Below are positions 20,568 through 64,000 of a stretch of DNA of 64,000 bases, piece after piece. Each line of letters begins with the position of its first letter. Within the stretch, counting starts at the first letter, position 1. The DNA comes from a virus. Location of the stretch: the IMG/VR virus record IMGVR_UViG_3300012944_000006, one strand, 5' to 3'. The notes under the pieces are model-generated. The model did not search any database. It worked only from the letters and a program-made list of their open reading frames with translations, and was not told the DNA's origin. The translations under genes and the position numbers were made by a program.

Positions 20568-20577
20568 TAGGAGAGTT

Positions 20578-38941: not shown

Positions 38942-38964
38942 CACCAGGCATTAACCCCCTCTAT
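38942..38964 (+). promoter_or_regulatory. dispersed motif copy
   Basis: caccaggcattaaccccctctat, 32 nt before ATG 38997. Confidence 0.5.
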
Positions 38965-38996
38965 CCCGCTTTCCGAGAAGCATTCCAAGGAAAAAT

Positions 38997-41483: not shown

Positions 41484-41818
41484 AACTATTAGTTATGTTT
41501 TTACTATTAGCTTCTTCAGTATGCTTCGCACAGTACGATCAATATCTTCCTGTAAAATGTGGTGAACACAAACATATTGATCTTGACGATGCGTGGAAAG
41601 ATTGCAAGTCTACCGGTCACAGTAATGATGTAGAGTGCACTATTACAGGAAGATGTATTGATGATCTTGTTCCAAGTTCGTATGACATCATCCCACTCTT
41701 TAAAATGCCGAACGAGGAAATCTATTTCGTTATACCTGATGTAGCGCATTGCAGTCCACCAGACTATGTAGAGTTGGGTATGAAGACTGTTCATTGCTGG
41801 ATACCAAAGAAGGAATAG
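41480..41818 (+). CDS. secreted small protein
   Basis: Signal-like MKLLVMFLLLASSVCFAQ; ATGA coupling. Confidence 0.55.
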   Translation: MKLLVMFLLLASSVCFAQYDQYLPVKCGEHKHIDLDDAWKDCKSTGHSNDVECTITGRCIDDLVPSSYDIIPLFKMPNEEIYFVIPDVAHCSPPDYVELGMKTVHCWIPKKE

Positions 41819-41837
41819 AGGGGATTAATGCCTGGTA
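41815..41837 (-). promoter_or_regulatory. dispersed motif copy, reverse, contains the integrase ATG 41828
   Basis: atagaggggattaatgcctggta. Confidence 0.45.
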
Positions 41838-47829: not shown

Positions 47830-47856
47830 TTACTTTTTTCTCGGATTGGTTAGTGG

Positions 47857-49104
47857 TTATTGATTGAGATTCAAGGGATCATTAGGATTTGGTTGACTAG
47901 TGGGAGGAACCATTGGATTGGGTGTATAACCATTTTGCTCTTGCAACCCACTAAGGTGCATGACTTTATCGGACAAGTCCTGTTGCTTCTTACGTAATCC
48001 CTCTAAATATTGACTATAGGCTTTTGTCCCATAGAACATCTGCTTACCGCTAACAGGGTCTTTTAAGATCTTACCTGGAGTATTAGCATCTCGATACTCC
48101 TGTTCAGCAACCGACTGTTGTTTCGTAAGTACATCAATCTGGTTCTTAAGAACTGGATCAAACTTAGCAGTACCTCGACCAGCCGTTGCGTGCCAAGCAT
48201 TCTTCTCGCTAAAGTATTCAGAGTTCATACCATCGAGAATCTTATGCCACGCAGCAGCCGGAACTTGCTCTGCACTACCATACTGTTTAATCAGTTCTCT
48301 ACCAGCAGCATCCAAATATCTATGTCCAGCTAGTTTAATAGGATCTTGTGACTCTCTCTTTAGATCTTCGAGTTGTTTGTCGTAACCAGCTTTCTGATCT
48401 GCAAGCTGTTGCTTTACATCATCGTTGTCTTTATAATGCTCCAACATTCCAGAGTAGTAATCACTCATAGCTTTGTTATGAGCGATACCAGCCTTGGCAG
48501 TATCCTGCTCCTGAGCTTCCTTCTGAAGAATAGCTACAGACTGAGCCTGTTGGAACGGAGCCATAAGCTGCGCGTTGATATGATCGTTGTGCGCTCCTTG
48601 ACTAGCCAACACTCCTTGAAACACATTGCTGATGCCTTCACCAGCCGTCTGAGCAGGCTTAGTAAAGGCAGCACCAGACATAGCACCTTCTAGGGCACCA
48701 GCAATATGAGGATGATTCTGCCACAAGCTATCGCTATGAATAAAGAGATGTGGATCTACATTGACATCATTGGTCACACCGAACCGACCAAGAAGCTCCT
48801 GAACCTGCGGAGAGTGTAGAGTATCCTGACTCATCGCAGCACCTTCGGTAGGGGAAACCCCCCCTCCAGGCCTAGATCCCCTCGTGCCCCCCGGAGTTTC
48901 ATTCCGAGGGATGTAGGGTCTGTTTTTATAAGGCGGGATGTTGGGTTTGCTACGTCCGGGATTTACCGGGGTAGCTGCCATAGGTGAAGTTCCCGGATTG
49001 ATCCCAGGGTCGCCCATCATAGGCGGTTCATTACCGGGAATAAGATGCCCTAAACCCACCGCATTAAACATATTAGAGATTAGAGGATTGTCTGTGAAAG
49101 CCAT
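47857..49104 (-). CDS. virion-block protein
   Basis: 415-aa ORF upstream of the giant gene. Confidence 0.55.
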   Translation of the reverse strand: MAFTDNPLISNMFNAVGLGHLIPGNEPPMMGDPGINPGTSPMAATPVNPGRSKPNIPPYKNRPYIPRNETPGGTRGSRPGGGVSPTEGAAMSQDTLHSPQVQELLGRFGVTNDVNVDPHLFIHSDSLWQNHPHIAGALEGAMSGAAFTKPAQTAGEGISNVFQGVLASQGAHNDHINAQLMAPFQQAQSVAILQKEAQEQDTAKAGIAHNKAMSDYYSGMLEHYKDNDDVKQQLADQKAGYDKQLEDLKRESQDPIKLAGHRYLDAAGRELIKQYGSAEQVPAAAWHKILDGMNSEYFSEKNAWHATAGRGTAKFDPVLKNQIDVLTKQQSVAEQEYRDANTPGKILKDPVSGKQMFYGTKAYSQYLEGLRKKQQDLSDKVMHLSGLQEQNGYTPNPMVPPTSQPNPNDPLNLNQ

Positions 49105-49733
49105 TAGCTAGCGTACCCACCCGCCCATCCTGTTGGAAGATTTGGAACTGGACCGCTGGTTGGCATCTGCGACCAAGTACCTTGACCTAGAGATCCTAGA
49201 ACAGAACTCCCACCCCCTCCTCCACCACCCATCATCCCACCTATTGCAGTACCAAGTCCACCAGTCAATCCGCCAAGAGCAGCGCCAGCTAACTGGGGTA
49301 GCCAAGTACCAACGCCCCCTGTAGTTTGTGTGGACTTCTGTCCGGTTTGCAAAGGTTGATAAGCCTGCATTGAAGACAACGCCCAATTACGATTCTGAAG
49401 AGCATTATTCAATGTACTGTTGAACGCACCGGACTGAAGTCCCGAGTTTGCAAGCATCGTTCGATTCAATAGAGATTGAGTAAAATTACCAGACTTGCCG
49501 ATCAATCCACCACCTGTACGAACATTAGCCAACGTATTAGAAATGTTACGCTGTCCAAGTTGTGAAGCCTGAGCCTGAGCCATCCCTAGTTGATTCTGAA
49601 AGAAAGAACTAGCTAAAGGATTCTGGGACATCTGAAGCAGAGAGTTCTGAAGCTGCGGCTGGAACGCACCGTAGGCACTCATACCTGCGGCATTATATTG
49701 ATTAGAGGTATCGGTAGTCGTCTTTGAGGACAT
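49104..49733 (-). CDS. Gln/Asn/Gly-rich virion-block protein
   Basis: 209 aa, C-terminal GGMMGGGGGGGSS run. Confidence 0.55.
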   Translation of the reverse strand: MSSKTTTDTSNQYNAAGMSAYGAFQPQLQNSLLQMSQNPLASSFFQNQLGMAQAQASQLGQRNISNTLANVRTGGGLIGKSGNFTQSLLNRTMLANSGLQSGAFNSTLNNALQNRNWALSSMQAYQPLQTGQKSTQTTGGVGTWLPQLAGAALGGLTGGLGTAIGGMMGGGGGGGSSVLGSLGQGTWSQMPTSGPVPNLPTGWAGGYAS

Positions 49734-50071
49734 TAAAGAACTTTCTTATATCGAAACTCAGGAGCGGTGCTAATCTTCTGCGCCCCCCAAGTATTCAATA
49801 CAGCTTGGTATTGTTCATCATTATCATGGACATTAAAGTAAATCTCTTTAACTCCTTGAAGTCGTAAGGCAGTTTCTAAATTCATTGCGAAGAGAAGTTT
49901 ACGTCTGGTTGGACTATCGGGATGAAAGTACATCGGATCAATCTCGAAGCAATTTCTAAGAACTGCAAAATCTTGTCCATCCATCGTTAAGACACTTGTT
50001 GCATAGCTAAGATCGGATGTTTCCGCGACCTTTGCAATCTCTTCATCGTTAGCAAGTCGTACAATATTCAT
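49733..50071 (-). CDS. hypothetical protein
   Basis: 112-aa ORF; motif copy 20 nt upstream. Confidence 0.55.
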   Translation of the reverse strand: MNIVRLANDEEIAKVAETSDLSYATSVLTMDGQDFAVLRNCFEIDPMYFHPDSPTRRKLLFAMNLETALRLQGVKEIYFNVHDNDEQYQAVLNTWGAQKISTAPEFRYKKVL

Positions 50072-50091
50072 AAGGCTCGGATTCCTTTAAT

Positions 50092-50111
50092 GAGGGGATT
50101 GTAGCCTGGTG
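50092..50111 (-). promoter_or_regulatory. dispersed motif copy
   Basis: - strand reads caccaggctacaatcccctc, about 20 nt before ATG 50071. Confidence 0.5.
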
Positions 50112-50351
50112 TTAGGCGTCGTCGTCTTGGAATTTAATATCTGGGGGTCTCTCTGTATCAATCCCTAGATGTTTAGATATAGCATATAGTGAGTTGTAGA
50201 TGTATGGCAAGTGATGCTTAGCCATCTCTTTAGTGAATCGGGTTGCGTTATCGTACTGTCGAAACCACCCGTAACCAATCTTGATTCCGGCTATTAAGAC
50301 AGCCAAACACCCAAGGACATAATAGATAGTGTTGAGTATGCCATCATGCAC
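50112..50351 (-). CDS. small membrane protein (holin-like topology)
   Basis: ILNTIYYVLGCLAVLIAGIKIGYGWF hydrophobic helix, charged C-terminus. Confidence 0.5.
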   Translation of the reverse strand: MHDGILNTIYYVLGCLAVLIAGIKIGYGWFRQYDNATRFTKEMAKHHLPYIYNSLYAISKHLGIDTERPPDIKFQDDDA

Positions 50352-50514
50352 GAGGATCTTTCAGATCAGGGTTATGTTTGAAGATTTCTTTGATATAGTT
50401 TTGAAGAGAACCAATAAGTTTCTTGTGACTTTGTAGGTCTGTCTCTCGTTGATTCGCCCACTTGTTCAGGACACTAACTCCAGAGGGTCCTGTGGATGTA
50501 ATATTCAATGGCAT
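50344..50514 (-). CDS. 56-aa hypothetical protein (not in ORF track)
   Basis: TAATG overlap with the upstream stop at 50514; fills a 160-nt gap. Confidence 0.4.
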   Translation of the reverse strand: MPLNITSTGPSGVSVLNKWANQRETDLQSHKKLIGSLQNYIKEIFKHNPDLKDPRA

Positions 50515-52970
50515 TAGATTCTCGAAATAGGGGAGTAATCGGTGATGAAAGAAGTCAGCACATCTGCAGATGTGGCCGAAGGACTGGGAGCACCAATCTG
50601 GAAAGAGTAGAATCGAGCGCGGCTGTTCGCCCCGGCAAGATAAAACTTCCTTGCTCCACCGAACGGAGCAGTTGTAAAAGATCCAGTCTTAATGGTGTAT
50701 GGAGAATCAAAGTCTGCTTGTGTAACAGCTCCGTAGACAGTGGCTACCATAGCATTTTCGTCTCCGATAGCTTCCATCTCATTAAGAACTTTCCAAACAG
50801 TGGCATCTCCCATATCCTGCCAGGTGGTTCGAACATTCCACGGAATAGACAAGTTGTTGTTCTGGAAGATAGGAGTACCACCGGGAGCAGGAACGTTAGT
50901 AAAGTCTTTGGTTTGAGTTGGATTGAAGTACCACGTCAGCAGAGAAGTATCGCAGAATTCAGTATAGAATAAGAATCTATTTCCACTACTGGGATACTGA
51001 TAAAAGAATATCGAGGTTGGCCCGTGATAATCTACCACCCCGCCTTGAGGAACGCCAATAGGGAAAGTCCAATGATACCACTTTCTAAGAGTAGTCTCAA
51101 AGATCAATAGCTCTGGATATGTCTGACCAACTCGTCTAAAGAAAACAACCGCGAAGTTATAGGGGCCATAGGTAAAGGATTTAACAGCAGCACCAGTGAA
51201 GGTTAGATCCCACTGTTGAAGATAGGAATAAACCGGAACGCCTACATCTTCATACGTATTGAAGTCAGAGAACATTACTTTATAGTCGGGAGTGATCCAC
51301 ATATAAGCTGAGGGTTGACTCTCTTTATATATGACATTCCAAACATCTTGATTCAATACGCCAGTCTGAGCAAACTGTTGATCGGGGATACTAAAGGATG
51401 CCATATCCGTTCCATACAAAGTATAGACCGCTCTGGTCGTAGCTATATGAAGAACCTGTCCATTAGATTGAAGAGCTGTAACCCGTTCATTATCAGTAGC
51501 AATAGGAATCTGGTTGGCACCAGGAAATGCTTCCTCCCATTTGGCGGTGATCAATCCTGTTGAAGTTGTAACCTCGTCAATGCTTTTTGAGAAGTAAACG
51601 TTCACACCATCAGTAACAAAGATCCTGCCCACATGAACCGTAGGATAAGTAAAAGGTTCTTGCGGGGGTAAATTATCTGCGATTCCTAAAACGTTACCGA
51701 ACTCATCCGTATCTACATATAGATTCTGCGTTAGAAGCGTTGCTCCTGAAGTATATGTCTGACTATAGGTATCAGGCATAGTATCAGTGTAGGTAAACGT
51801 TAGGTTTGTATTAGGACCTACAACCGCAGGAGCAAAAGAAGATAAAGGAATCTTCGCTACCAAATAAAGATGTTGTTCATCTCCACCATCTGAAGTAGCC
51901 AGCAGTAGAACCGTATCTACCTGCCCATCAATGACAGCGTTGGCTGTATATCGTTTGATCGGTCTATTATTCCCGGTGTTAACGACAGGTGCAGCACTTC
52001 CTACTATATCGGAGATGCTAATGTTTACCGTTAAGCTGGTGAACCCAGAATTCTGATTCGTCCAAGTTACTGTACCATCGGTGGTTGTACCACCCACAGT
52101 TTCATTCCAAGTAGGAACACTTGTCCCACTGGTTCCAGCAGTCGTTACCTTCTGATTGTAAATCCCATCATTAACAATCTGACCGAGAATATAAGTAGCT
52201 GCTGGTTGCCAAGCTGCCTTAGAAAGACTTGGAACCGGGGGATTAAAGCTATACCAAATGTCAGAGACATGACCTGTGAAGCTATTCATGAAGGCTACGG
52301 TATACTGTCTACCAGTCGCAAAGGTCAATGGACCTGTGCCATTCGGAGTAACCGTAATCAAATTGGTCTGATTGCCTGCCGCATCTAATGCGGGAAGTGG
52401 TGCGACAATGCCCCAAAGATTCGGGCCTTGAGGGGTATTAAAGCCTGGTGAGGAGTTCAGCCCCCAATTAATTTTAACCGCAGTACCCAAACCTACCGTC
52501 AAATAATTCCAGAAGCGACTGGTTACAGCGTAGATATTTCCGTTGGCTCCGAATGAAGTTTGGAAATCCGAAGGTGCAATTGTAAGTCCGCTTCTGCTAT
52601 ACGCAGACCCGTCATCATTCAGAACCTCAAGTAGATTGATATTCCGATACAAGAAAATGTTGGTAGCGCTGGTCCCTGAAGGATTAGAAGCATCCTGCGG
52701 TACGTTGTAAAAGAAGACTTGGCTCGGTGTACCAGCAGCCGGATAAGCTGCGCCACTTAAAGCACTGAGATTGTAGACTCCCCATCTCGTTCTAAAGCCG
52801 CCACTTACTCCAGGCAAAAGATTGTTTAAATCTAAGAATGCCTGAGGATTCTGGTTAGGTCCAGACGAGAAGGTGTCAATGCCAGCATCAATGAAATGGC
52901 TATAGACAGTCCGGTTAGTATACCTATGATACCAGCCTACGTATTCAGTTGGAACCTGATTGTAAGGCAT
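50514..52970 (-). CDS. large tail protein (nozzle / tubular-B-like by size and order)
   Basis: 818 aa directly after a 211-aa ORF, like the tubular A/B pair of podoviruses; analogy only. Confidence 0.5.
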   Translation of the reverse strand: MPYNQVPTEYVGWYHRYTNRTVYSHFIDAGIDTFSSGPNQNPQAFLDLNNLLPGVSGGFRTRWGVYNLSALSGAAYPAAGTPSQVFFYNVPQDASNPSGTSATNIFLYRNINLLEVLNDDGSAYSRSGLTIAPSDFQTSFGANGNIYAVTSRFWNYLTVGLGTAVKINWGLNSSPGFNTPQGPNLWGIVAPLPALDAAGNQTNLITVTPNGTGPLTFATGRQYTVAFMNSFTGHVSDIWYSFNPPVPSLSKAAWQPAATYILGQIVNDGIYNQKVTTAGTSGTSVPTWNETVGGTTTDGTVTWTNQNSGFTSLTVNISISDIVGSAAPVVNTGNNRPIKRYTANAVIDGQVDTVLLLATSDGGDEQHLYLVAKIPLSSFAPAVVGPNTNLTFTYTDTMPDTYSQTYTSGATLLTQNLYVDTDEFGNVLGIADNLPPQEPFTYPTVHVGRIFVTDGVNVYFSKSIDEVTTSTGLITAKWEEAFPGANQIPIATDNERVTALQSNGQVLHIATTRAVYTLYGTDMASFSIPDQQFAQTGVLNQDVWNVIYKESQPSAYMWITPDYKVMFSDFNTYEDVGVPVYSYLQQWDLTFTGAAVKSFTYGPYNFAVVFFRRVGQTYPELLIFETTLRKWYHWTFPIGVPQGGVVDYHGPTSIFFYQYPSSGNRFLFYTEFCDTSLLTWYFNPTQTKDFTNVPAPGGTPIFQNNNLSIPWNVRTTWQDMGDATVWKVLNEMEAIGDENAMVATVYGAVTQADFDSPYTIKTGSFTTAPFGGARKFYLAGANSRARFYSFQIGAPSPSATSADVLTSFITDYSPISRI

Positions 52971-53605
52971 TACTGAACGAATGCGCCTTTCTTAAGCAGC
53001 TCATACTGCTGTGCCCAGAAGCCAACCTCCTGGTCAAGCTTCAGATATTGACAAGCCAACATGTTAACACCGGCTACTATCAGATCCTTACCATCATTCG
53101 GGATCAAAAGAACATCCGTTAGATTCACCAGATCAGGACTGTAAGCTTCGTAGTGAACCTCATAGGTTCCATTGAAGGCTGCCTTTTGAGGAGCTGGAAA
53201 TATCACCAGGCCAGTAGTCCCCTCTCTACGATAATATTCCGGCCACTGTTGCATCGTTTTCGGAGTCAACATAGGTTCGGGAATCTGGAGGGGAGCTTTT
53301 GCCTGGACTGCATCGGCTTCTGAGGCAGGAAATATAAGATTGTCTATTGGAAGGATAACACGATCAAAGGTTCGGTCATATAGAAGAACGATACGCCGGG
53401 TGGTAGATGGGATGGTATACAAAGATGTTCCACTAACGACATTGACCGTTGTGATGTTCTGTAGAAGGGTATTGAATAACGATGTGTGAAGTGCATCCTT
53501 CTGAATGCGGTTGACCCAGGGGATTAAAATAGCTGCATCCGTAGAACCGTTAAGAACCTGACGAATGTCGTTGGTGGTATCATTGATGATATCTTGAACT
53601 GTCAT
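52970..53605 (-). CDS. tail protein (tubular-A-like by size and order)
   Basis: 211-aa ORF, start/stop coupled. Confidence 0.45.
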   Translation of the reverse strand: MTVQDIINDTTNDIRQVLNGSTDAAILIPWVNRIQKDALHTSLFNTLLQNITTVNVVSGTSLYTIPSTTRRIVLLYDRTFDRVILPIDNLIFPASEADAVQAKAPLQIPEPMLTPKTMQQWPEYYRREGTTGLVIFPAPQKAAFNGTYEVHYEAYSPDLVNLTDVLLIPNDGKDLIVAGVNMLACQYLKLDQEVGFWAQQYELLKKGAFVQ

Positions 53606-55044
53606 ATAGCGGTGGGCACCAGTGTTGCACTCTTTGCGATAAAGGCAACGGTAGTATTAGCTGGAACGGAAACAGCCTGTGCTGTAAATCCACCAGCGAT
53701 AGGCGTTAAGGAAACTCGTACCGGAGTTGCGGTAGCATTGCTGGCGTTGAGTGTGTACATTAGACCAGCAGTATTTGAGACCGTAGCGTTGTTAAAGGTA
53801 ATTGTTCCTGTGCTTATTGGAGAGGCCGTAGGGTTGGCAATGATAATTACATTTGCCGTAGTCGTATAGAATGCACTGGATTGAAGACCTGCGGTGCTTG
53901 TTCCGGGGGAGATAGATGTAGCTAGACTGGCCCCAGTACTTGCTCCCAGATAGCTTGTTGAATTAACCAGCTGATAGAAGTAAAAATTTGAATTGGGTAT
54001 AAGCGGTGGTTGTGAACATGTCATTGTCACCGGGTCCCAGAAGAGACAAAAGAATGTACCGGAACCAGAACTAGCTGCCGCATATTGATCAGCTTGTGTG
54101 ATCTTGGAGTTCGCCCAGTCCATGAAAGATATTGAATCCCAAAGGGGACCAAATGTTGCATCGTTCCTGCAACAGTCAGAACTAAAAGCTGAACTTGTGG
54201 CGGACTCAGTTACAAAAATTGGAGTTGTAGAAGCACTAGGTTGAGTTCCTGCTCGTACGAGGGTTGTGATTGAAGAGGCAAGAGCTTGCTGTCCTGCACC
54301 AGCATCTTGTAACGTGTTGAAACAAGTAGTCCAAGTTCCTGTGCATCCGGCTAGATAAGAATGATAGTCTACAAACTGTACTGATGGTGCGGTTCCTGTA
54401 TTGCCCAGAAGACCTGTGGAAGCATTCGAAAGCCAAGCTGCCGCATTGGTTGCAGGTGCTCCAAGAACAGGGCCACCCACCAAAGCGGTAGAACTGTCGG
54501 CTACAACCTGTGCAATCATGGCAGGTCCAGCAGCCGTATAGAGGGGAATATAGGCCTGGAGATTTGTTCCACTTCCAGGACAGAATTGACCTGTTAGATC
54601 GTATTCATTGCCTACTTCCCAATATAGAACTAAACCGGGATGCAATCCATCCACGTGTGCGATAGCTGCAGCGGCTCTTGTTGCCCATGTGGTATTGTTA
54701 CTGGGAGGAGTACAACCCGATGCTCCTAAGTCCGGAGGAGTCAATTCAATAGATACTATAAGTTTATATCCACGAGCAGCAGCAAGAGTTGTTATTCCGT
54801 CAATTGATGTATAACTTGGGGTGCAAGGGCTTGGGCAATTGGCCCAGACTTGTTGTAGAGAGATGAACTCTCGGGATAGAGTTACTCCCGCATTTGTCAA
54901 TAAGCCTGTGCTATTTACATCTAAGTGGGACATAGTGTTTGTCCCTTGTACTACTAGCGGTGTTCCTCCTGTGAAGCTTGCACTTACCGCCCCAAAGGAA
55001 TTAGATACCATTAATAGAATTAATGACAGATATCGTAGCTTCAT
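53602..55044 (-). CDS. signal-peptide-bearing clan GH-A-like glycoside hydrolase
   Basis: MKLRYLSLILLMVSNSFGAVSA; LYWEVGNEYD (acid/base NE motif) and PIFVTESA (candidate nucleophile Glu). Confidence 0.6.
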   Translation of the reverse strand: MKLRYLSLILLMVSNSFGAVSASFTGGTPLVVQGTNTMSHLDVNSTGLLTNAGVTLSREFISLQQVWANCPSPCTPSYTSIDGITTLAAARGYKLIVSIELTPPDLGASGCTPPSNNTTWATRAAAAIAHVDGLHPGLVLYWEVGNEYDLTGQFCPGSGTNLQAYIPLYTAAGPAMIAQVVADSSTALVGGPVLGAPATNAAAWLSNASTGLLGNTGTAPSVQFVDYHSYLAGCTGTWTTCFNTLQDAGAGQQALASSITTLVRAGTQPSASTTPIFVTESATSSAFSSDCCRNDATFGPLWDSISFMDWANSKITQADQYAAASSGSGTFFCLFWDPVTMTCSQPPLIPNSNFYFYQLVNSTSYLGASTGASLATSISPGTSTAGLQSSAFYTTTANVIIIANPTASPISTGTITFNNATVSNTAGLMYTLNASNATATPVRVSLTPIAGGFTAQAVSVPANTTVAFIAKSATLVPTAI

Positions 55045-55655
55045 TTTATAGCTGAGATGTTAAGTGTATATGTAGGAACGTTTGCAGTAGCATTGTTAAC
55101 ATTGGTCAGTTTGACAACAACAGTGTTGACTGCAGTAACTCGATAGCTATACCGGATACCAGAACCGAAGTCGATGGATGGATTGACGTAAACCACTGCT
55201 GGCATACCCGGTGCGGGGATGCCAGAGAGCGTATAAGATCTTGATTGCTCAGAGAAAGCTGTGATGCTTGTAGCAGGAACGGCAATAGAAGTTCCAAAAA
55301 CTCCTGATCCACTTGAAGGTACATAGGGTGTTAACTTAATCTGAGAAACTCCTCCCACAGTCGTAAGAGTTTCTAAATAGGTTCCATCAGGATAGTTCGT
55401 TCCACCGGTAAGATTAATTGAATTACTTTGAAGATTTGGTGCCTTGAAGATGGTACCATCGAAACTAAGTCCTTGTGGAAGACCTGCCTTAACAGTACAG
55501 GACCACAATCCGGTGACAGGATCAGCTACAATTGTTGTTCCATCCGGCTGTGGGAGATTGAAAGTTACTCCTGGATAACTAAACGAAGGGACTACAACCT
55601 GTTGCGCTGCCACCGGAAGTCCCAGTGCAAGAAGAAATAAAGCTAGTGTTTTCAC
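55041..55655 (-). CDS. signal-peptide-bearing beta-rich protein
   Basis: MKTLALFLLALGLPVAAQQ. Confidence 0.55.
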   Translation of the reverse strand: MKTLALFLLALGLPVAAQQVVVPSFSYPGVTFNLPQPDGTTIVADPVTGLWSCTVKAGLPQGLSFDGTIFKAPNLQSNSINLTGGTNYPDGTYLETLTTVGGVSQIKLTPYVPSSGSGVFGTSIAVPATSITAFSEQSRSYTLSGIPAPGMPAVVYVNPSIDFGSGIRYSYRVTAVNTVVVKLTNVNNATANVPTYTLNISAIK

Positions 55656-57454
55656 TGCGCTCCTTGTGATTGATTACCAAACAATTCAAAATTACCTGCC
55701 AAAATTCCTCGGGGTGCTGTAGGAATTATAATTGGATTGATTGTATATGCACAGGATGTGATAGTACTATCCAAGAACCCTGTACCTCCAGCTACAGAGA
55801 ATAATGTAGAAGTAGAAGGAACTGAAACTAATCCGGTGTACAGAGTACTTCCTCCACCACAACCCGTTGTTCCATTAGTTGCAGGTGATCCTGTAGTATT
55901 GTAGCATATGATAGCTCCACCGGACGTTGAAGACAAAGCAATATTCTGAGTTCCTGTGTAGGTTCCTGCTACTGGAGAACAGGTCGGAGCATTAGCCGTT
56001 GGAGTTCCTGATTGGAACTGAGCAGCTCCACGATCATCTACATAAGCATTACCGTAAAGATCTGTGGTATCCCAAGGTGCGCCAAGTGCCAAACGACTTT
56101 GATAGTTGGCGTTCTGTGAAGCAAGCTGCGCTCCGAGATTGATATTAGTAAAAGGATTAGGCGCTCCGCTAGTAACAACTACGCTATGAGCACCCCCATC
56201 ACCCGTTCCAGAATTAAGGAAGGTGTTATAATCTCCCGTAATGCCAGCACCACCACCATTACTAGAACCATTACAGTTATAATAGAGATTGTTTTTAAAT
56301 ACATTGCCGCTACCTGCTTGAAGAACTGAGCCGCAACCTGTACCAGAACTATTCGGATAAGACAAGGTGTTGTTATATACCAACCAATTGACCGCTTGGC
56401 AGTTGTTACCAGACTGGAAACATCCAAGCCAACCGTCATTATGACGACAGGTTGTACCAGTACCACCGGCAGAACAGAAGTCGGTGTTGTTATAGATCTC
56501 GATATCTGTGTCGGTTCCTGTAGCTACACCGACTACATCTCCATTTGTCTGCTGATCACGGAAGACATTGTGATGTATGAGACTTGAGGTATTGTTACCT
56601 TGAAGTTGTACAGCTTCACCGTGATTAATGCTGCCGTCAAACAAGCCCCATACATAGTTATGATCAAAGCTTCCACTATTCCATCCACCACTGACAATTG
56701 TAAGAAATGTAGTACCTGCATTATGTAAGTAACTATTGGTAACAGTAACACCAGTTAAAGCACCGCCATTAGCAAACCAGAAGTAGGTTTCTGAGTTGTT
56801 GTTGCCGTTGCTGTTCAGTCCTTGGCCGAACCACTCAACCGATGTCCAGATGATACCATTTGCCCCTGTATGCATTACACCGTTGCCACCGTCGCAACCA
56901 TTTGTTGCGGTGGATGTACAGGTTGAATCATCAATTATGATTCCACATTGAGTTGGACTTGGGGAAGGACCCGTCATTGCTCCAGGTGGATTGTGATTAA
57001 CTCCGCCGCAACCAACATCATCTAAAGCTGAAGGGTTGCCATTGAAAGTTGTATTAGCACCAATAGCAGACACGATTGTACCAGAACCAGCCGAGCGCCA
57101 TGCAGCTTGACCTGATCCCATTGTGGATGTATTCCAACCAGCTCCAATCCCACAACCATTACCGAAGTCATAGTTTTGGGCTTTGCGTATCTCAGCTTGT
57201 CCACTTGCACCGCTGGTAGTATGACTAAAGGCATGACCATATGTATTAATGGGACTGGCACTTGGAGCACTACCGTGCGTCCCATCACCATCGGCTAGAT
57301 AATAAATATCCCCTCGCACTAAATTGGAGGGAAGAAGTTCCATGTTATTCCAATCAGCGCCTGTACCGCCACCTGTTGCAGCAGGACCAACAGCATGACA
57401 AGCAGCAAATACCGGAGTCGATAAAGCGAATAGTGCAAGAATTAAACGTTTCAT
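55652..57454 (-). CDS. signal/lipobox-bearing right-handed beta-helix-like protein (polysaccharide lyase/hydrolase type)
   Basis: Trimmed to MKRLILALFALSTPVFAAC; Gly/Asn/Thr-rich periodic segments (NNTDF, NNTLSY, NNLYYNC). Confidence 0.55.
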   Translation of the reverse strand: MKRLILALFALSTPVFAACHAVGPAATGGGTGADWNNMELLPSNLVRGDIYYLADGDGTHGSAPSASPINTYGHAFSHTTSGASGQAEIRKAQNYDFGNGCGIGAGWNTSTMGSGQAAWRSAGSGTIVSAIGANTTFNGNPSALDDVGCGGVNHNPPGAMTGPSPSPTQCGIIIDDSTCTSTATNGCDGGNGVMHTGANGIIWTSVEWFGQGLNSNGNNNSETYFWFANGGALTGVTVTNSYLHNAGTTFLTIVSGGWNSGSFDHNYVWGLFDGSINHGEAVQLQGNNTSSLIHHNVFRDQQTNGDVVGVATGTDTDIEIYNNTDFCSAGGTGTTCRHNDGWLGCFQSGNNCQAVNWLVYNNTLSYPNSSGTGCGSVLQAGSGNVFKNNLYYNCNGSSNGGGAGITGDYNTFLNSGTGDGGAHSVVVTSGAPNPFTNINLGAQLASQNANYQSRLALGAPWDTTDLYGNAYVDDRGAAQFQSGTPTANAPTCSPVAGTYTGTQNIALSSTSGGAIICYNTTGSPATNGTTGCGGGSTLYTGLVSVPSTSTLFSVAGGTGFLDSTITSCAYTINPIIIPTAPRGILAGNFELFGNQSQGAQ

Positions 57455-57461
57455 AGATCCT

Positions 57462-58286
57462 TTATTTAAAGAATGCTGCAATAGCAATAACGCTGGAATC
57501 GCCAGTATATGTTACCTGACAATTCGTAGCCGATCCGGTTGTTTGAATGTTGGTTCCAATCATAGAATCCCACTGGGCAGTTACTGAACCACCTGTGGGA
57601 ATAGCACAAGGGGCTGCAACTACAATAGCGGATGCTCCGATACCATTACCAGCACTACTTACCGCATAAAGCTCTCCATTGCCTGCGGGAGTAATTGAAC
57701 CCGGAGAGACCGCCGAACCCGCTGCAAATGCACCCGCAGAGGCAACATCAAGTGCGGGAGTGGCTCCTGTATAAGTGTAAGGAAACCCACCAATAGCAGC
57801 TCGGGTAGTAGTAGCACTAGTCAGAGTAAAAGAAAATGTATGTAATGTTCCTACTGTGCCATTGATAATGTAGCAAAGGTTCGTCCCGCTCGTACCTGTG
57901 TGAACAAAGATAACCGTGTTACAAGTAATTATATTGCTCTTACTATCCGTAACTGTAAAGGTATCAAGCGCTAATCCATGACCTACATCAATAAGTACAA
58001 GCTTGGCACTTGTGGTTGTACAAGTTCCTGTGGTAAGAGGCGTACTTGTCACCGCTACCGCACTGACCATTGTACAGTTAGTTCCAGTTGCAGCATATAA
58101 TGAACTAGCAGCAGTCCCTGTCCATGTTGATCCAATTGCAGGCATAGACTGTTGAATATAATCCCAACTAAGATACTTACTTTCTAACGAAGGAATAAAA
58201 TACGTCTTGTTCCCGCTATGCAATACCGTAGTACCGTGTGCAAAGGATGAAGCTAGAATGCAGAAAGCAATAAGCTTTTTAAACAT
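57462..58286 (-). CDS. signal-peptide-bearing Thr/Ala/Gly-rich protein
   Basis: Trimmed to MFKKLIAFCILASSFAHG (TAATG overlap with the upstream stop). Confidence 0.5.
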   Translation of the reverse strand: MFKKLIAFCILASSFAHGTTVLHSGNKTYFIPSLESKYLSWDYIQQSMPAIGSTWTGTAASSLYAATGTNCTMVSAVAVTSTPLTTGTCTTTSAKLVLIDVGHGLALDTFTVTDSKSNIITCNTVIFVHTGTSGTNLCYIINGTVGTLHTFSFTLTSATTTRAAIGGFPYTYTGATPALDVASAGAFAAGSAVSPGSITPAGNGELYAVSSAGNGIGASAIVVAAPCAIPTGGSVTAQWDSMIGTNIQTTGSATNCQVTYTGDSSVIAIAAFFK

Positions 58287-60067
58287 TACCGTGTTACGCC
58301 CCAATTAATTGTCAATGCTGCCGGAGTAAGAGAACCGCTGGTGTTATTGCAAACCTTAAAGTTAACGTTCCCAGATGTGGGATAAGACTGGATATAAAGG
58401 CTACCCGTAGCCGAAACTGCATATCCGGTTACAGCCGTAGGATCAGCATTTGGAGTAATCACAATTCGATCTGTAGTAGTAACACCAGTTGCCGCTACCG
58501 TGATTACGGTAGCACAAACTCCCGTAGTAATTGCACCCGTACCCATCGCAGTTGAACCACTAGCAATGGTCTGAGTAACCGTACCCTGTCCAAAGAGTGC
58601 TCCAGAAGGCAACCAGTTTACGTTGTCTGCACTTGAGAACACATCACACTGGTTGGTTCCAATTGTAAATGTCGTTCCAGCACCAGGCAAAAAAGCCCCT
58701 GCAGAGATCGTGAGGGTTACAAGTCCTGTGTTTTCATTACAAGCTTTGAACGAGAAGTTGTTACCTAGAGTTGCAGCCGTAGTAAGAGTAACAGCAACTG
58801 CAGAAGCGGAGTTATAAAGAACCGAGCTACCACGATCTGTTGCTACTACAGTATCAGTTGTGCCTGCAACAGTACGACCTGGAACACCAGAAAGACCCCA
58901 TGCAGCCGGTTGACCTACACCACCCGAAGGAGTTGAAGTAAGAATCTGAGGAACTCCGTTGGGAGTAGTTGGTAGGGTAGGAAGTCCAGTAATTGCTTCG
59001 CACTGTCCATCTGCCGGAACATATGCTTGAGCAGCCGTACCACAACCTGTCAAACCAGCCAAGAAGGAAGCCAAATCAGAAGCCACAGCAGCAACTGCAG
59101 TACCCGAGCCGTTAGTTCCTAGAAATTTAGAACTAATTAAAGCCGTATCTTTCAAAGAACTAAACGAACCCGCAGCCGGAGTCGTACCTCCAATCGCCGC
59201 CGGAGTTGCAAGATAAGTAGCTAAGTCTAAAGCAACAGGAGCAATAATAGAACCAGAAGGGGACCAACTGTAAACAAATACATGTCCACTGGTTGTAGGC
59301 CCTGCAATATAAGTTGTAGTGCCGGCTGCAGATTGATAAGGAGCCGAACCTAAAGCACCCCCACCAAGATTGGTAGAGGTAGTTGCAGTCGTAGCAGTTG
59401 TTGCGTTAGTGGCGTTTGTTGCATTGGTCGCTGTTGCCGCGTTTCCGGTGTAATTGCTACCAGCAATCTCAAACTTAACTATACCACCAGATGTATTCGT
59501 AGCCGTGATAGACAAACCTACGCTGTTAGTAACAGAATTTATAAGATTCAAAAGCGTCTGATTTAAGTTCGGAGTACCGTTGGTTTGAGTAGCTGGACCA
59601 CTTCCACCACCACCTGTCGCTGCAGTACAACTTGTCCCATTACAAACATATACAGTATTAGTACCAGTATCGGCACTGATTGTACCAGCATTTATTAAAA
59701 AACTTAAAGTTCCTGCAGATCGCGCAGAAGCAGTTGTAACCTGTCCATTGTTTGGATTGGTATTACTAGCAACCGATTGAACATAATAGTTATACTGGAT
59801 ACCCGCAGTCAACCCAGTAAGACTGACACTATGAGTAAGGACCAATGTAGGATCTAAGGTTGAACTACTACCAGTCGCACCAAGTTGACCATAAAAGACT
59901 TGAGACGAAGAAGCAATGTCCGTAGTCCATATGATTGTAGCTGATGTCGAGGCTACAGTTCCCACCCCAACACCAGAAATAACTGGGGGTACTGCAGTAG
60001 GAAGTTGAGCTTGAAGCGGGGCAACTATGCCCAAAATCAAACCAAGTATATATGTAAAACGTTTCAT
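58286..60067 (-). CDS. signal-peptide-bearing fibre-like protein with FN3-like N-domain
   Basis: Trimmed to MKRFTYILGLILGIVAPLQAQ; SATIIWTTDIASSSQVFYG; NATNATNATNATTATTATT run; motif copy upstream. Confidence 0.55.
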   Translation of the reverse strand: MKRFTYILGLILGIVAPLQAQLPTAVPPVISGVGVGTVASTSATIIWTTDIASSSQVFYGQLGATGSSSTLDPTLVLTHSVSLTGLTAGIQYNYYVQSVASNTNPNNGQVTTASARSAGTLSFLINAGTISADTGTNTVYVCNGTSCTAATGGGGSGPATQTNGTPNLNQTLLNLINSVTNSVGLSITATNTSGGIVKFEIAGSNYTGNAATATNATNATNATTATTATTSTNLGGGALGSAPYQSAAGTTTYIAGPTTSGHVFVYSWSPSGSIIAPVALDLATYLATPAAIGGTTPAAGSFSSLKDTALISSKFLGTNGSGTAVAAVASDLASFLAGLTGCGTAAQAYVPADGQCEAITGLPTLPTTPNGVPQILTSTPSGGVGQPAAWGLSGVPGRTVAGTTDTVVATDRGSSVLYNSASAVAVTLTTAATLGNNFSFKACNENTGLVTLTISAGAFLPGAGTTFTIGTNQCDVFSSADNVNWLPSGALFGQGTVTQTIASGSTAMGTGAITTGVCATVITVAATGVTTTDRIVITPNADPTAVTGYAVSATGSLYIQSYPTSGNVNFKVCNNTSGSLTPAALTINWGVTR

Positions 60068-60081: not shown

Positions 60082-60102
60082 ATAGGGGATTATGGCCTGG
60101 TG
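60082..60102 (-). promoter_or_regulatory. dispersed motif copy
   Basis: - strand reads caccaggccataatcccctat then ctgaaagacagaga ATG 60067; also encodes the endonuclease VII C-terminus. Confidence 0.5.
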
Positions 60103-60395
60103 TTAGCATCGGTTGATAAATAATTAATCGCTTTTTGTAGTAATTCTGGCGAGTCTTTAAATTTATCTAATGCTGTATTACATAGATGGCAAAGTAGTCC
60201 TCTTACTTTTCTGGTATTGGGATCTCGGTCTATACACAATCTAGTATGTTTCTTATCAAAGTTTGTCTTTTTACAGATGGCACAAACTCCATTTTCTTGT
60301 TCTAAGAAATCTTCATATCGTTGGATAGATAAACCATGATAACGAGCATAAGATCTTTCTATCTCATATGGGGATAATTCATATTGATTTAACAA
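60090..60395 (-). CDS. recombination endonuclease VII-family nuclease
   Basis: CAICKK...LCIDRDPNTRKVRGLLCHLCNTAL matches the Endonuclease_7 layout. Confidence 0.8.
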   Translation of the reverse strand: MLNQYELSPYEIERSYARYHGLSIQRYEDFLEQENGVCAICKKTNFDKKHTRLCIDRDPNTRKVRGLLCHLCNTALDKFKDSPELLQKAINYLSTDANTRP

Positions 60396-60409: not shown

Positions 60410-61687
60410 CTAGATTCCCAGACTTGGGTAGTCTAAACGATTTCCATATTGGTATTGACTGGTGGAATCCGGGGTGATGTAATCCGTCTTTCTAAAATTG
60501 ACGTTAAGATCTTTTCTAATCTGACGGATGCCATCTAGAAACTCTTGCTTCCAGATAGAAGCCTTACTATAGTCACCCGAGCGTGGGGGATTATTGCTAA
60601 TGGGGTTTTGATATAGTTCGGTGAAGAAGTTAACTCCAGCAATCACAACATCCTTGTAGATGTCTGGAATGGAAAGCACATCAGTGATATTTCGAATTAT
60701 GGGACGTTGCCTAAAGTATCTAAATTCAATTACATAGCCGAACAGCGGTTCCAAGTTACTTGACTGCGGAGCCGTTCTTGTGTTTAGTACAATACCACTG
60801 GTAGGCTCTACGAAGTTTCCAGTCAACGGACTTATGTTCTGTAAGGTCATATCGTTTGGTCCACTCGGACCCATGCCTACATATAGATTCCAACGATTGT
60901 ATTGAACATTGGCTGCTGATGCAATCTCAGGCAGAGGTTGTGCAGCATTGAGTAAGAAACCAGATGGAATGAAAATGGTAGCAAACTGGGCTGATGGAGT
61001 TCCCTCATTGTTCTGAGTATCCACGAACGTAGCCGATACGTAATAGGTTCTAGCTGGTAAAGCTCCTCCAGCACTGAGGGTACAGTATGGGGGAAGCGGA
61101 ACGGGAACATATGCGTTCTGATTGTCTGGGATTGGAAAGATATCTAACTCACCCGGATTAGTGATCTCATAATGAAACGAGCGAGGCCTATCATATCGAG
61201 GAGAAGTATCTTGATAGGAGTAGGCAGGCGAGTTTAGTACTTTGAAGGAATCCGGCATAAGCTGACGCCAGTTAGATCCATCAAAAACTTGATCATTGGG
61301 GATTGACCAGACATCAGGCAGAGCCAATCCTGTTTGAACTGTACCTGCGGGAGCCGTTCCATTAGCAATCCAGTATCGTCCTTGTCCAGGTTGGGTAATG
61401 AATTTCTGCTTTTCAGATAACAAGAACTGCCATTGAGATTCTCTAAGAATCCTCTGCTGGACACGATTTACATAGTCAAGAATCTGAGTCCGATTTGTCG
61501 TTCGAACCTGGGCATCTCCGATCACAGCATTAATAATATCGTTAGCTGTGGTTGTATAAAATCCACCTGAAGGAATAGTCCCACTACTACCTATAAGAGT
61601 AGTGGTGAGACTCCCATCTGGATCAACGTTTAGACTCCAGAACTGTCCGAGATCATCGGTGAAATAAGCAAAAGAAGGAACTGACAT
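60410..61687 (-). CDS. tail/baseplate-block protein
   Basis: 425-aa ORF between the spike and the nuclease. Confidence 0.5.
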   Translation of the reverse strand: MSVPSFAYFTDDLGQFWSLNVDPDGSLTTTLIGSSGTIPSGGFYTTTANDIINAVIGDAQVRTTNRTQILDYVNRVQQRILRESQWQFLLSEKQKFITQPGQGRYWIANGTAPAGTVQTGLALPDVWSIPNDQVFDGSNWRQLMPDSFKVLNSPAYSYQDTSPRYDRPRSFHYEITNPGELDIFPIPDNQNAYVPVPLPPYCTLSAGGALPARTYYVSATFVDTQNNEGTPSAQFATIFIPSGFLLNAAQPLPEIASAANVQYNRWNLYVGMGPSGPNDMTLQNISPLTGNFVEPTSGIVLNTRTAPQSSNLEPLFGYVIEFRYFRQRPIIRNITDVLSIPDIYKDVVIAGVNFFTELYQNPISNNPPRSGDYSKASIWKQEFLDGIRQIRKDLNVNFRKTDYITPDSTSQYQYGNRLDYPSLGI

Positions 61688-64000
61688 TATTGACTAACCG
61701 TGCAACCCCATGAAACTGCTGAAGGTGTGATTGATCCTGTAGTAGGATTCGTAAGCCGAACCGATACTGTATTGCTTGCGCTTATCCAAGAAGACCAAGA
61801 CAAATTTACATTACCTAAGGTAGCTAGTGGTGAGCACACAGCTCCGTGCATCGAAGTGGTAGCACTGGTTACTGTAACCGTTTGTTCTTGCGCTGTTTGA
61901 GCTGCTATAGCAGTATAGGTTAGAGTACCACTTCCTGTAAGAAGTGTACTCGCAGCCAAAGGTGTAGTACCCTTAAAGATATTAGCTGCCGACAAATAGG
62001 AACTCGCATTGAACTGCGACGTGGTTGTAATGATTGGAGAGAAGGGACATCCAGTTCCAGACCAAGTAGCTGGAGCATAAATATCTACCGTCATAGCCGG
62101 GTCAGTACTTAAACCCCCAAAACGAAAATAATGAATCGGCGATGCTGATGGACCAATCGATTGGAATGTTTGCCAAGTAGTTGTAAGATTGGCAAGCGTT
62201 ATAGGTGCGACGTTTCCAGATACGTTTCCGTCGAAACGAAGAGTACCTGTTCCCGATGGAACCTTCAGCTGTACGCAGGTTGTAATAGAACCAGAAGGTC
62301 CAGACGAAGAAGAAGTATTGGTGTAATTCCAATTTGCACTAGCTGCATTGAGAACAACCTCGCAGGCATTGTTTCCACCATCAGGATCGGGTTGACCGCA
62401 AGTGATTGAAGAAATTGGAGTTATGCTGTAGTTTGCAGGCCAACCCGCAGTCGCAGCAACCATGTTAGCAGAGTTCTGTATGTAGTTAGCACCCCTGGCA
62501 ATTTTAACTGCCCCAGATACTTGACTATTTATACCATTAACTGAATCAGAAGAATAATAGATCTTCCAAATACTTCCACCAGAATCCCATGTTTCTTGAG
62601 TAAACACGGGAGTAGTATTAGCTGGCTGACCTTTAAAACAAAAGCGATTGATAGTAAACGGTGAAGTTGAGGTAAGATCATACCAGCAACGACTGTCTTT
62701 AAAATGCAGGCCTGCGTCTGGCATTGAGGAAGAACCCCCCAATGTGTTTTCTGAAAATGAATTCTTTCCGGCCGGTCCAGTCGGTGACATCTCGACTCCG
62801 GCATTTCTGTCTACAAACAAGCCCCCTGCTACATTCGCGCCCGAATTGTAAGTAAGAAACTGGATCGCATAGGAACCGCCCCCATAAATGTTGGGAATAT
62901 TCGCTGCTGAAGACACGATGTTAGCAGTAGCAGTTGTGTTTTGGATCGCATAGACAATGCCAAAATTTGGGACAATGACATTTCCAGAGTTTGTTGCTGG
63001 CGTCGATCCATAGCCTCGAAACACATTATTGATGAGCTGGACGCTGTAACCTTGGGACTGCGCATTGCCGGAAAAGCCAGAACCAGTACCGGGGATGACT
63101 GTCTCTATACCTTCAACGCGATTACCCACCGTGACTTCGCCGCAGGGAAATGCAACCAATGTGCAATTCGATGAATATCCCCCGCTGCCCGAACCATGGT
63201 TCGCTTCAAGGTGATTGTCCTGAAGCGTGACTGACCCGAAGTTGTTTCCATTGGTAGTCCTGATAACAACCCCGGTAACCCATGCCGCCCCAATTCCTGA
63301 TCCACTTGTGCAGAGCCCAGGGCGTGAGCAAGAAACCCCTCGAATCACACCATGTGGTGAAAGATCGCTAGCGAATCCAGAATAGATTATACGTTCGAAA
63401 TCGTTCTGTTGTTTACTTGCATCTGCAGCACAAGGGGCTGAAGACAGCGGATTTGCATCCGCGCAAGTAAGATCCAAAAAGTTTTGGGGAGTAAGAGTTG
63501 CAGCGTTTGTAGGTGAATCTAAATATACAGGAAACCAATCAACAGTATTTAATGGAATTGTAGTAGCTGTTGCAGTAATACCTGAAGTTAATGTAGCTGT
63601 TTCGGAATGCCCACCGACTCGAACACTATGATTAATACGAGGTTGCCCTGAAAATGGAAATCCTTCAAAATAACAATTCTTAATCGTACCATTTTCGACT
63701 AGGAACTCAAAACCATTTTCAAAGTTCAACGGTTTTGCGGAGCATCCATCAACCGAAATGTTCTGTCCAGTTGCGTAAAGAGCATAGTGAGAATCTGGAA
63801 TAATAACCCCACTGGCTGGATAAACACCCGCAATGCAGTTGTCTCCCCAACAAAAACCACTGTCATCCTGCCCGGCACCAATTATTTTAAGATTATTAAA
63901 ATAACTTTCATTATCGGCAACAAATTGAGCAGGCCAACGGCAGTTGGTGATGGTTATGTCATCACCACCAACACGTTCACCATCACCTTGAATATTTAAA
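61687..64000 (-). CDS. beta-helix tailspike-like protein, 5' end outside the window
   Basis: The reading frame stays open upstream of the listed TTG at 63729 to the window edge; Gly/Asn/Ser/Thr-rich periodic sequence. Confidence 0.6.
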   Translation of the reverse strand, partial: LNIQGDGERVGGDDITITNCRWPAQFVADNESYFNNLKIIGAGQDDSGFCWGDNCIAGVYPASGVIIPDSHYALYATGQNISVDGCSAKPLNFENGFEFLVENGTIKNCYFEGFPFSGQPRINHSVRVGGHSETATLTSGITATATTIPLNTVDWFPVYLDSPTNAATLTPQNFLDLTCADANPLSSAPCAADASKQQNDFERIIYSGFASDLSPHGVIRGVSCSRPGLCTSGSGIGAAWVTGVVIRTTNGNNFGSVTLQDNHLEANHGSGSGGYSSNCTLVAFPCGEVTVGNRVEGIETVIPGTGSGFSGNAQSQGYSVQLINNVFRGYGSTPATNSGNVIVPNFGIVYAIQNTTATANIVSSAANIPNIYGGGSYAIQFLTYNSGANVAGGLFVDRNAGVEMSPTGPAGKNSFSENTLGGSSSMPDAGLHFKDSRCWYDLTSTSPFTINRFCFKGQPANTTPVFTQETWDSGGSIWKIYYSSDSVNGINSQVSGAVKIARGANYIQNSANMVAATAGWPANYSITPISSITCGQPDPDGGNNACEVVLNAASANWNYTNTSSSSGPSGSITTCVQLKVPSGTGTLRFDGNVSGNVAPITLANLTTTWQTFQSIGPSASPIHYFRFGGLSTDPAMTVDIYAPATWSGTGCPFSPIITTTSQFNASSYLSAANIFKGTTPLAASTLLTGSGTLTYTAIAAQTAQEQTVTVTSATTSMHGAVCSPLATLGNVNLSWSSWISASNTVSVRLTNPTTGSITPSAVSWGCTVSQ

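Follow-up and report, generated by a model that had tools for sequence, protein, structure and literature searches.

Five consecutive tail-region genes with predicted export signals in an uncultivated soil phage: a candidate exported glycan-active cassette

Why would five neighboring genes of a tailed phage, located among its tail genes, all encode proteins that begin with an export signal? In tailed phages, structural and fiber-like proteins are made and assembled in the cytoplasm. Phage enzymes that cut sugars are usually seen as virion spikes or as cytoplasmic "auxiliary" genes, and exported phage lipoproteins and endolysins are known. The locus that raises the question lies in the IMG/VR virus record IMGVR_UViG_3300012944_000006, from which a stretch of 64,000 nucleotides, hereafter the window, was analyzed. 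Its block of five open reading frames (ORFs), ORF1 to ORF5, occupies 53602-60067 on the minus strand. The initial annotation of this DNA had offered three explanations for the signals: exported factors outside the virion, for glycan degradation or surface modification; uncleaved anchors used in an unusual assembly route; and a moron cassette captured from the host. The first fits our results best, and moron capture fits only in part. The explanation we favor, with a little more confidence than doubt, is that the block encodes an exported, non-virion set of proteins which binds and cuts envelope polysaccharide late in infection, and that it is a phage-borne cassette with no recent capture from a host.

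Signal peptides at the N-termini of the block

The five ORFs are closely packed or overlapping, all on the minus strand. ORF5 (58286..60067) encodes 593 amino acids (aa) with a signal peptide at approximately residues 1-20 (...PLQA↓QLP). ORF4 (57462..58286; 274 aa) starts at an ATG that overlaps the ORF5 stop and has a signal peptide ending in ...SSFAHG↓TT, and ORF3 (55652..57457) encodes 601 aa from an ATG behind AAGGA (...PVFA↓ACHAV). ORF2 (55041..55655; 204 aa) uses a GTG start behind AAGGAG (...PVAA↓QQVV), while the stop of ORF1 (53602..55044; 480 aa; ...NSFG↓AVSA) overlaps the start of the adaptor gene. The ORFs exist as the initial annotation described them, and the N-termini it quoted are correct. 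Its trimming of ORF3, ORF4 and ORF5 to an internal Met fits the ribosome binding sites (RBS) and gene overlaps; homologs begin at the equivalent Met, and the public gene call for ORF5 (P0123) is also 593 aa.

Each N-terminus carries one to three Lys/Arg, a hydrophobic run of 10-15 residues and small residues at -3/-1. The charge is +1 to +3, the best 8-residue Kyte-Doolittle mean is 3.0-3.3, and the predicted cleavage sites of ORF1 to ORF5 are SFG↓A, VAA↓Q, VFA↓A, AHG↓T and LQA↓Q, respectively. Signal peptides were called by a simple rule for the n-, h- and c-regions, which is crude and has a background of 3-6%, together with comparative evidence. This rule flags 5/5 block ORFs vs. approximately 3 of the window's 96 remaining ORFs, and five flagged ORFs in a row are therefore far beyond chance. 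The homologs agree with the heuristic. In the ORF1 family, all seven homologs have a variable signal peptide ahead of a conserved mature start, and the same pattern of conserved position and variable sequence is found in nearly all of the ~110 members of the ORF3 family. A signal peptide is also present in 54 of 54 ORFs that carry the C-terminal domain of ORF5 and are complete at the 5' end. On this heuristic and strong comparative evidence, the N-termini of the block are genuine-looking Sec signal peptides of the kind cut by signal peptidase I (SPase I).

Two other explanations bear on the N-termini themselves. Since three of the five ORFs needed trimming to an internal Met and the predictor is crude, the signal-peptide look might be chance or an annotation artifact from wrong start codons. 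We find this hardly credible, as the starts are backed by RBS, gene overlaps and the starts of homologs, 5/5 ORFs are flagged against a background of ~3%, and the signal feature is conserved in hundreds of homologs. Alternatively, the hydrophobic N-termini might be uncleaved signal anchors, or segments like those of signal-arrest-release (SAR) endolysins, that keep the proteins tethered to the inner membrane, on its periplasmic side, until lysis. Phage SAR endolysins are a precedent for membrane tethering followed by release, and the h-regions of the block are strongly hydrophobic, as the Kyte-Doolittle values above indicate. However, the h-region is short in each of the five and small residues come after it at -3/-1, Gln is found at +1 in ORF2, ORF5 and many homologs, and the segments, as cleaved signals typically do, vary in sequence at a fixed position before a conserved mature start. 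Anchoring is therefore improbable in our assessment, and cleavage would describe these N-termini better.

Outside the block, the rule flags three window ORFs: one of 112 aa, a junk ORF of 49 aa and, weakly, that of the capsid protein. The 112-aa protein (41480-41818, plus strand) is not linked to the block; its gene lies where the plus-strand early/middle block ends, its signal peptide (..SSVCFA↓QYDQ) is strong, and it gave no family matches. The major capsid protein (1022-2032, minus strand) opens with a conserved hydrophobic segment, ..FGFALSLLGFGADVVTV.., which is weakly signal-peptide-like and is also found in a related IMG/VR contig (L001, 3949-4986). Gln is very common at the predicted +1 position (..A↓Q..), as seen in ORF2, ORF5, the 41480-41818 protein, loci L128-L185 and the Acidobacterial homologs P0002-P0006. 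This recalls the "Q-rule" (N-terminal pyroglutamate) described for Bacteroidota.

Predicted enzymes and fiber-like proteins

What would such proteins do outside the cytoplasm? ORF1 had been called a GH-A-like hydrolase, and a profile match and the catalytic Glu residues now narrow this to GH39-like. The ORF1 family profile matches GH39 beta-xylosidase structures (E 3.7e-12) over the N-terminal half only, two ORF1 homologs have a PF01229 record, and both catalytic Glu are invariant (E147 in NEYD and E280 in VTE). ORF1 is thus a GH39-like clan GH-A glycosidase by prediction, which matches signal-peptide-bearing homologs over essentially its full length.

ORF3 comprises a carbohydrate-active beta-helix core (~residues 20-490) and a CHB_HEX_C-like C-terminal domain (~495-575), a domain that is common in large Acidobacterial surface proteins. 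The AlphaFold2 (AF2) model is a right-handed beta-helix with a predicted local distance difference test score (pLDDT) of 80 and a predicted template modeling score (pTM) of 0.79, with low confidence in the C-terminal 110 residues. Together with a Foldseek search, it bears out the earlier label "beta-helix-like". The nearest solved folds are GH136 lacto-N-biosidases, the pectate lyase Pel9A and PL6 alginate/chondroitin lyases; for the matches, which are 7v6m, 5gqc, 1ru4 and PL6 lyases, the Foldseek probability reaches 1.0 and the template modeling (TM) scores are only 0.3-0.5. By sequence, no significant match to solved enzymes was found (best E 0.19). We predict from the model that ORF3 is a beta-helix of polysaccharide lyase or hydrolase type. 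It has more than 100 homologs with 45-65% identity, nearly all with a signal peptide that ends ..AFA↓ACHAV. Residues 1-490 are matched by signal-peptide-bearing homologs of ~500 aa, most of them on unassigned metagenome contigs and one named, from Tunturiibacter. A possible lipobox had been noted in ORF3 (F-A-A-C), but this did not hold up in the family, where the Cys is replaced (AFASYHAV, ATNHAV, AAVHAV) or shifted and lies outside the invariant or near-invariant alignment columns. Lipoprotein processing by SPase II is consequently not a family feature.

In ORF5, the signal peptide is followed by an FN3-like domain, a fiber-like stretch rich in NAT/TAT, a beta-sandwich region and a conserved C-terminal domain. 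The FN3-like assignment, which had been made earlier, is weakly supported, as the Pfam matches fall under the cut-off. Residues 360-593 were modeled with AF2, where the first 36 residues of the fragment have low confidence. A fold search with this model matches the N-terminal domains of CBA120 TSP4, T4 gp9/gp10, a capsid spike and many models named "tail fiber protein". The C-terminal domain itself (residues ~495-593; 58289..58585, minus strand) is modeled with pLDDT >94 as a beta-sandwich with two conserved Cys and the motif YPT..NVNFKVCN..ITP..T.NW. No Pfam or NCBIfam match to a C-terminal sorting domain (type IX secretion system CTD, PEP-CTERM etc.) was found at the ORF5 C-terminus. A sorting role was also rejected because the domain is tandemly duplicated in locus L131 and partially duplicated in L169, and its superfamily also ends fibers without signal peptides.

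ORF4 has tandem beta-sandwich (Ig/FN3-like) domains in an Atlas model, and its nearest clusters are viral. No relatives of ORF2 or ORF4 were found in IMG/VR, and for ORF2 no homologs were found apart from the link of its C-terminus to a tailspike-type C-terminal domain. This link leads to the tailspike of the phage, P0161, of which the window holds residues 186-955 of 955 aa (61687..63999, minus strand), its 5' end being cut by the window edge. The spike is a pectate-lyase-like beta-helix without signal peptide; the full protein, recovered in an exhaustive protein search, starts MLGQSF.. and has the pectate-lyase-like domain from residue 41. Its last 95 residues (61690-62004; ..VSVRVCNPT.GSITPSAV.W..) belong to a large family of C-terminal domains with 245 matches, which ends signal-peptide proteins (71/112 of those with at least 200 aa) as well as proteins with classic fiber N-termini. 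Many members of this family (P0171-P0310) are free-standing proteins of 100-190 aa that start MP.RPANI.. and contain a coiled-coil-like segment and little else.

BLAST gave no similarity among the C-termini of ORF2, ORF5 and the spike, and a hidden Markov model (HMM) of the ORF5 domain found ORF5 only. Profile-profile comparison later linked them: hhalign of the spike C-terminal family gave a Prob of 93% (E 3e-7) against the ORF5 domain, and 86% (E 5.6e-6) against the ORF2 C-terminus. The C-terminal half of ORF2 is probably the same domain as the tailspike C-terminus, the assignment being a single hhalign result. By these profile matches, the spike, ORF5 and ORF2 share one type of distal domain, which is probably a glycan-binding or trimer-capping beta-sandwich.

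Recurrence of the cassette, and export versus virion assembly

In 58 IMG/VR phage contigs, the last 95 residues of ORF5 recur with 50-66% identity, in proteins of 200 to 2,500 aa whose bodies are otherwise unrelated. Around this domain gene, we determined signal-peptide rates for ORFs of at least 150 aa. The flagged rate is 88% at the next downstream gene (+1), 57% at +2 and 20% at +3, while it is 34% at -1 and 6% far from the domain gene. The +1 gene belongs to one family of ~250 aa with the conserved mature start Q-GGM-GPGPGT in 26/47 loci. ORF4 holds the +1 position in the window. It was considered as a member of this family, which was not significant by either HMM or hhalign, and its likeness is limited to size, position, a ..TP..N.EL.. 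motif and an ..AFFK ending. The layout ORF5-ORF4-ORF3 matches the recurrent cassette. Judged by homology and gene order, the five-gene block is one instance of a cassette type that more than 50 uncultivated phages share. The ORF5 domain is nearly absent from cellular genomes (2/401 Acidobacteriota), and tblastn found it in none of 50,697 cultured phage records.

The position of the cassette differs between phages. A complete siphovirus (L138/G543) has it between the capsid and connector genes, and ordinary tail-tip genes without signal peptides follow Dit elsewhere in its genome. At locus L156, the cassette comes after the terminase gene. Therefore, the cassette is not tied to the tail-fiber position.

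These features are consistent with the following sequence of events, in which we infer that the proteins are exported and cleaved, what they act on, where they end up and how the phage benefits. The block would be transcribed together with the late tail genes, and the five proteins would leave the cytoplasm via the Sec pathway and be cut by SPase I. They would then act in the periplasm or at the surface of the infected cell on an envelope polysaccharide, i.e., exopolysaccharide (EPS), capsule or lipopolysaccharide (LPS). Cutting would be performed by ORF1 (GH39-like) and ORF3 (beta-helix enzyme). Binding would be carried out by the fiber-like or beta-sandwich proteins ORF5, ORF2 and ORF4, with ORF5 and ORF2 using the tailspike-type C-terminal domain. 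The benefit might be clearing of the matrix for progeny escape, destruction or masking of receptors on infected cells and debris, or exclusion of other phages. No block protein matched PADLOC models for defense or superinfection exclusion.

Several points weigh against this explanation. ORF5 is structurally tail-fiber-like in its predicted model, and ORF5 and ORF2 appear to share their distal domain with a virion spike. A Pfam scan of ten other carriers of the ORF5 domain found a pectate-lyase-like beta-helix in one and a phage tail collar domain in another. The block is located inside the structural operon and is translationally coupled to the adaptor gene, and in phage SU10 the fiber genes gp12-gp16 sit roughly at the position of the block (PMC9509320). 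In a related contig (L137), no other large fiber gene was seen next to the adaptors. Moreover, the five proteins would need a route across the outer membrane.

Cysteine content does not settle the matter. The mature chains of the block have even Cys counts (10, 16, 6, 8) and 1.3-2.6% Cys, which gives weak support, while the core virion and ejection proteins (42730-52970 and 1022-5498, both minus strand) have 0-0.5%, with no Cys in proteins of 1,699, 415 and 209 aa and one in the 818-aa nozzle-like protein. However, the spike is equally rich in Cys despite its lack of a signal peptide. Cys richness was thus rejected as proof of export, which also counts against our explanation, and likely marks surface exposure rather than export.

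The same evidence raises the alternative that the proteins are true receptor-binding proteins of the virion, which are exported, folded and disulfide-bonded in the periplasm and dock on finished particles at the holin lesion or lysis, or in the lysate. The phage fiber/spike fold of the C-terminal half of ORF5, the domain it has in common with the tailspike, the tail collar domain and tailspike-type beta-helices of other carriers, the location of genes inside the structural operon and their overlap with the adaptor gene would all fit such a route. So would the even Cys counts, and the fact that the only large fiber-like genes seen beside the adaptor in L137 carry signal peptides. Nevertheless, we know of no tailed phage that assembles via periplasm-folded fibers, and our literature search found no precedent for tailed-phage fiber-like proteins with Sec signals, nor for this cassette. 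A fiber/spike-type domain is present in ORF5 and probably in the ORF2 C-terminus but not in ORF1, and the ORF3 beta-helix belongs to a signal-peptide-bearing, mostly metagenomic family. In the block proteins, the signal peptide is followed at once by an FN3-like or catalytic domain, and no docking N-terminus is visible; mature ORF1 and ORF3 look like plain enzymes. Because these two are homologous over the full enzyme length to signal-peptide-bearing relatives, no virion-docking domain seems to have been added to them. The virion would not need the block proteins either, since the phage already has a tailspike free of signal peptide (P0161), an adaptor, an adaptor-like protein and a nozzle. 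The ordinary tail-tip genes of the siphovirus and the differing cassette positions also argue against a virion role, to which we assign a low probability.

In a broader form, the cassette would represent a large class of Sec-routed receptor-binding proteins of tailed phages, which join virions at lysis or are displayed on the infected cell as adhesins or decoys. This is a speculative idea that we would not expect to prove right. If it did, a cassette in more than 50 phages would mark a new step in phage assembly or spread, and if the proteins were virion parts, phage assembly would have a periplasmic branch that nobody has described.

Source phage, origin of the block and comparison with known systems

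The remaining question is whether the exported set belongs to the phage or was borrowed from its host. The window is nearly a whole phage genome, as public contigs bearing its proteins are 63-65 kb. Because of an SU10-type portal, two SU10-adaptor paralogs, a capsid protein, a large terminase, a family A DNA polymerase and a phiEco32-type COOH-NH2 ligase, the source phage is identified by gene content as an uncultivated soil SU10/phiEco32-like podovirus. It looks lytic-type. No similar cultured phage was found by tblastn with ORF1, the nozzle-like protein and the ORF5 C-terminal domain against the 50,697 cultured phage records. Two related contigs were found in IMG/VR: L001, with a portal 51% and a capsid 66% identical to those of the window, and L137, with an adaptor 55% identical. 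Shine-Dalgarno sites are present at several window genes, and no tRNA genes were found in the window.

The host is probably an Acidobacteriaceae bacterium, since the cellular relatives of ORF1 (~35% identity) are found only in metagenome-assembled genomes (MAGs) of Acidobacteriaceae/Terriglobales and the one named ORF3 homolog comes from Tunturiibacter. The ORF1 relatives were sought with patterns from the ORF1 alignment in one genome per prokaryotic species, and they lie in unrelated contexts. None of the 117 GH39-like loci found has any other window protein, and no host locus was found with two block genes. A contig of 11,577 bp seems to carry homologs of both ORF1 and ORF3 (P0003, P0090).

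On the downstream side of the block, ORF1 is followed by the SU10-type adaptor gene (52970..53605, minus strand; assigned by a family match) and next by the gene of the nozzle-like protein (50514-52970, minus strand; 818 aa). On the other side, an endonuclease VII gene (60090..60395, minus strand) separates the block from the gene of a 425-aa adaptor-like tail protein (60410..61687, minus strand), the second SU10_adaptor paralog, whose homologs adjoin the adaptor in L001 and L137. For this endonuclease VII gene, GC is 0.33 and GC at third codon positions (GC3) is 0.22, well under the rest of the phage. As this gene and the five-gene block split adaptor paralogs which are adjacent in both relatives, the block looks more like a cassette that moved between phages and was rearranged or inserted than like a fresh capture from the host.

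Could the block instead be a moron or auxiliary cassette captured from the Acidobacterial host, with signal peptides that are merely inherited and have no phage-specific role? The restriction of ORF1 relatives to genomes of the presumed host group, the up to 65% identity of ORF3 to ~500-aa signal-peptide proteins, the inserted look of the block and the GC-deviant gene that abuts it would all agree with capture. The part of this proposal that stands is the host-type family membership of ORF1 and ORF3. However, a search of 151 sampled genomes from the Acidobacteriaceae-type family matched the CHB_HEX_C-like domain of ORF3 but not its core, and the ORF5 domain, essentially phage-specific, and the ORF4-like proteins are overwhelmingly viral. 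The initial annotation had also proposed a comparison of codon usage and GC, and this gave no signature of recent capture. The overall GC of the block equals that of the phage, the codon choice correlates with that of other phage genes, and GC3 (0.28-0.34) is under that of the other structural genes of the phage. Recent capture from a high-GC host would raise GC3, and the lower value therefore counts against it. The block has no terminators of its own, and promoter- and terminator-like sites are no more common than in shuffled sequence. Together with the conservation of the signal-peptide cassette across more than 50 phages, this makes host capture without a phage role unlikely, and we retain a phage-borne exported set as the preferred explanation.

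The expression of the block may involve a repeated motif. A motif copy before the block had been noted earlier, and we find it at 60084..60106 (minus strand; AGGGGAnnnnnGCCTGGTG on the plus strand); the start of ORF5 follows 17 nt downstream. Another copy, at 50093-50115 and upstream of a gene starting at 50071, has 91% identity to it. The 23-nt motif AGGGGAnnnnnGCCTGGTG (reverse complement CACCAGGCnnnnnTCCCCT) has approximately 20 copies in both orientations, often just upstream of gene starts, and may be a phage-specific promoter or regulatory site. Other copies include those at 3311-3333, 10896-10922, 12616-12685, 15955-15985, 17675-17705, 20545-20569, 28002-28027, 30306-30332, 37546-37572, 38942-38966, 41815-41840 and 42693-42717.

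Three further features of this phage group were observed. In L137 (1709-3697), the capsid gene matches the window capsid in two ORFs (residues 22-111 and 126-281) that lie ~1.2 kb apart; an intron, intein, mobile element or frameshift may interrupt it. In the window, the phiEco32-type COOH-NH2 ligase is followed by an ORF that starts MCGIAG... (25216-27743, plus strand), a start typical of class II glutamine amidotransferases, and together the two suggest a nucleotide or DNA modification module. Finally, a stretch of 241 nt with internal repeats in 12/18-nt steps is present in two copies that are 90% identical (16228-16600 and 18039-18381), which encode Gly-Ser-Trp-rich ORFs of 77 aa (16294-16527 and 18105-18338).

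A gene for a signal peptide, a fiber- or spike-like body and a conserved C-terminal domain, with more signal-peptide genes after it, is a common arrangement among uncultivated phages. Should the products be exported enzymes and binders, these phages would remodel the polysaccharide coat of the host from outside before lysis. Such remodeling would matter for how viruses spread in biofilm-like soil matrices and for the turnover of soil carbon, and the cassettes would be a source of secreted depolymerases.

Known systems share parts of this arrangement. Bdellovibrio MAT fiber proteins, which are secreted, tail-fiber-like, equipped with signal peptides and displayed outside the cytoplasm, may be likened to the block. 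They are, however, encoded by genes of a cellular predator and have variable C-terminal tips, whereas the block consists of phage genes and the C-terminal domain is conserved. Another likeness is to T5 Llp, Cor-type lipoproteins and signal-peptide/SAR endolysins, all phage-encoded and exported, some encoded beside receptor-binding genes, and acting on the envelope of the infected cell. These are small single proteins for receptor block or wall lysis, while the block encodes five large enzymes or fiber-like proteins without a conserved lipobox. The likeness of ORF1 to PslG-type periplasmic hydrolases of bacteria would lie in the GH39 family, the signal peptide and an action, presumed here, on exopolysaccharide that the cell itself produces. 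ORF1 differs in being phage-encoded, and PslG itself is not among its matched structures, which are GH39 beta-xylosidases.

Tailspike and tail-fiber depolymerases (CBA120 tailspikes, P22-type spikes and free forms) resemble the block in their beta-helix or fiber architecture, the spike-type C-terminal beta-sandwich and the likely polysaccharide target. Those known have no export signal, are made in the cytoplasm and are bound to the virion or released by lysis, while the block has Sec-type signals and no visible docking N-terminus. Target proteins of phage diversity-generating retroelements (DGRs) are likewise reported to be without signal peptides (PMC6199706). The auxiliary carbohydrate-active enzymes (CAZymes) of soil phages are similar in that ORF1 and ORF3 are phage-borne members of host-type CAZyme families. 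Signal peptides in such enzymes are known but uncommon, with 5% in a survey of prophage CAZymes (PMC13507307). The block differs from them in having five signal-peptide genes in a row inside a tail operon, together with fiber-like binders that share a tailspike domain, and in being a cassette that recurs. Collectively, these comparisons suggest that the finding is best filed among phage-encoded exported glycan-active proteins, while assembly via periplasmic fibers is a less likely explanation that would be much more novel.

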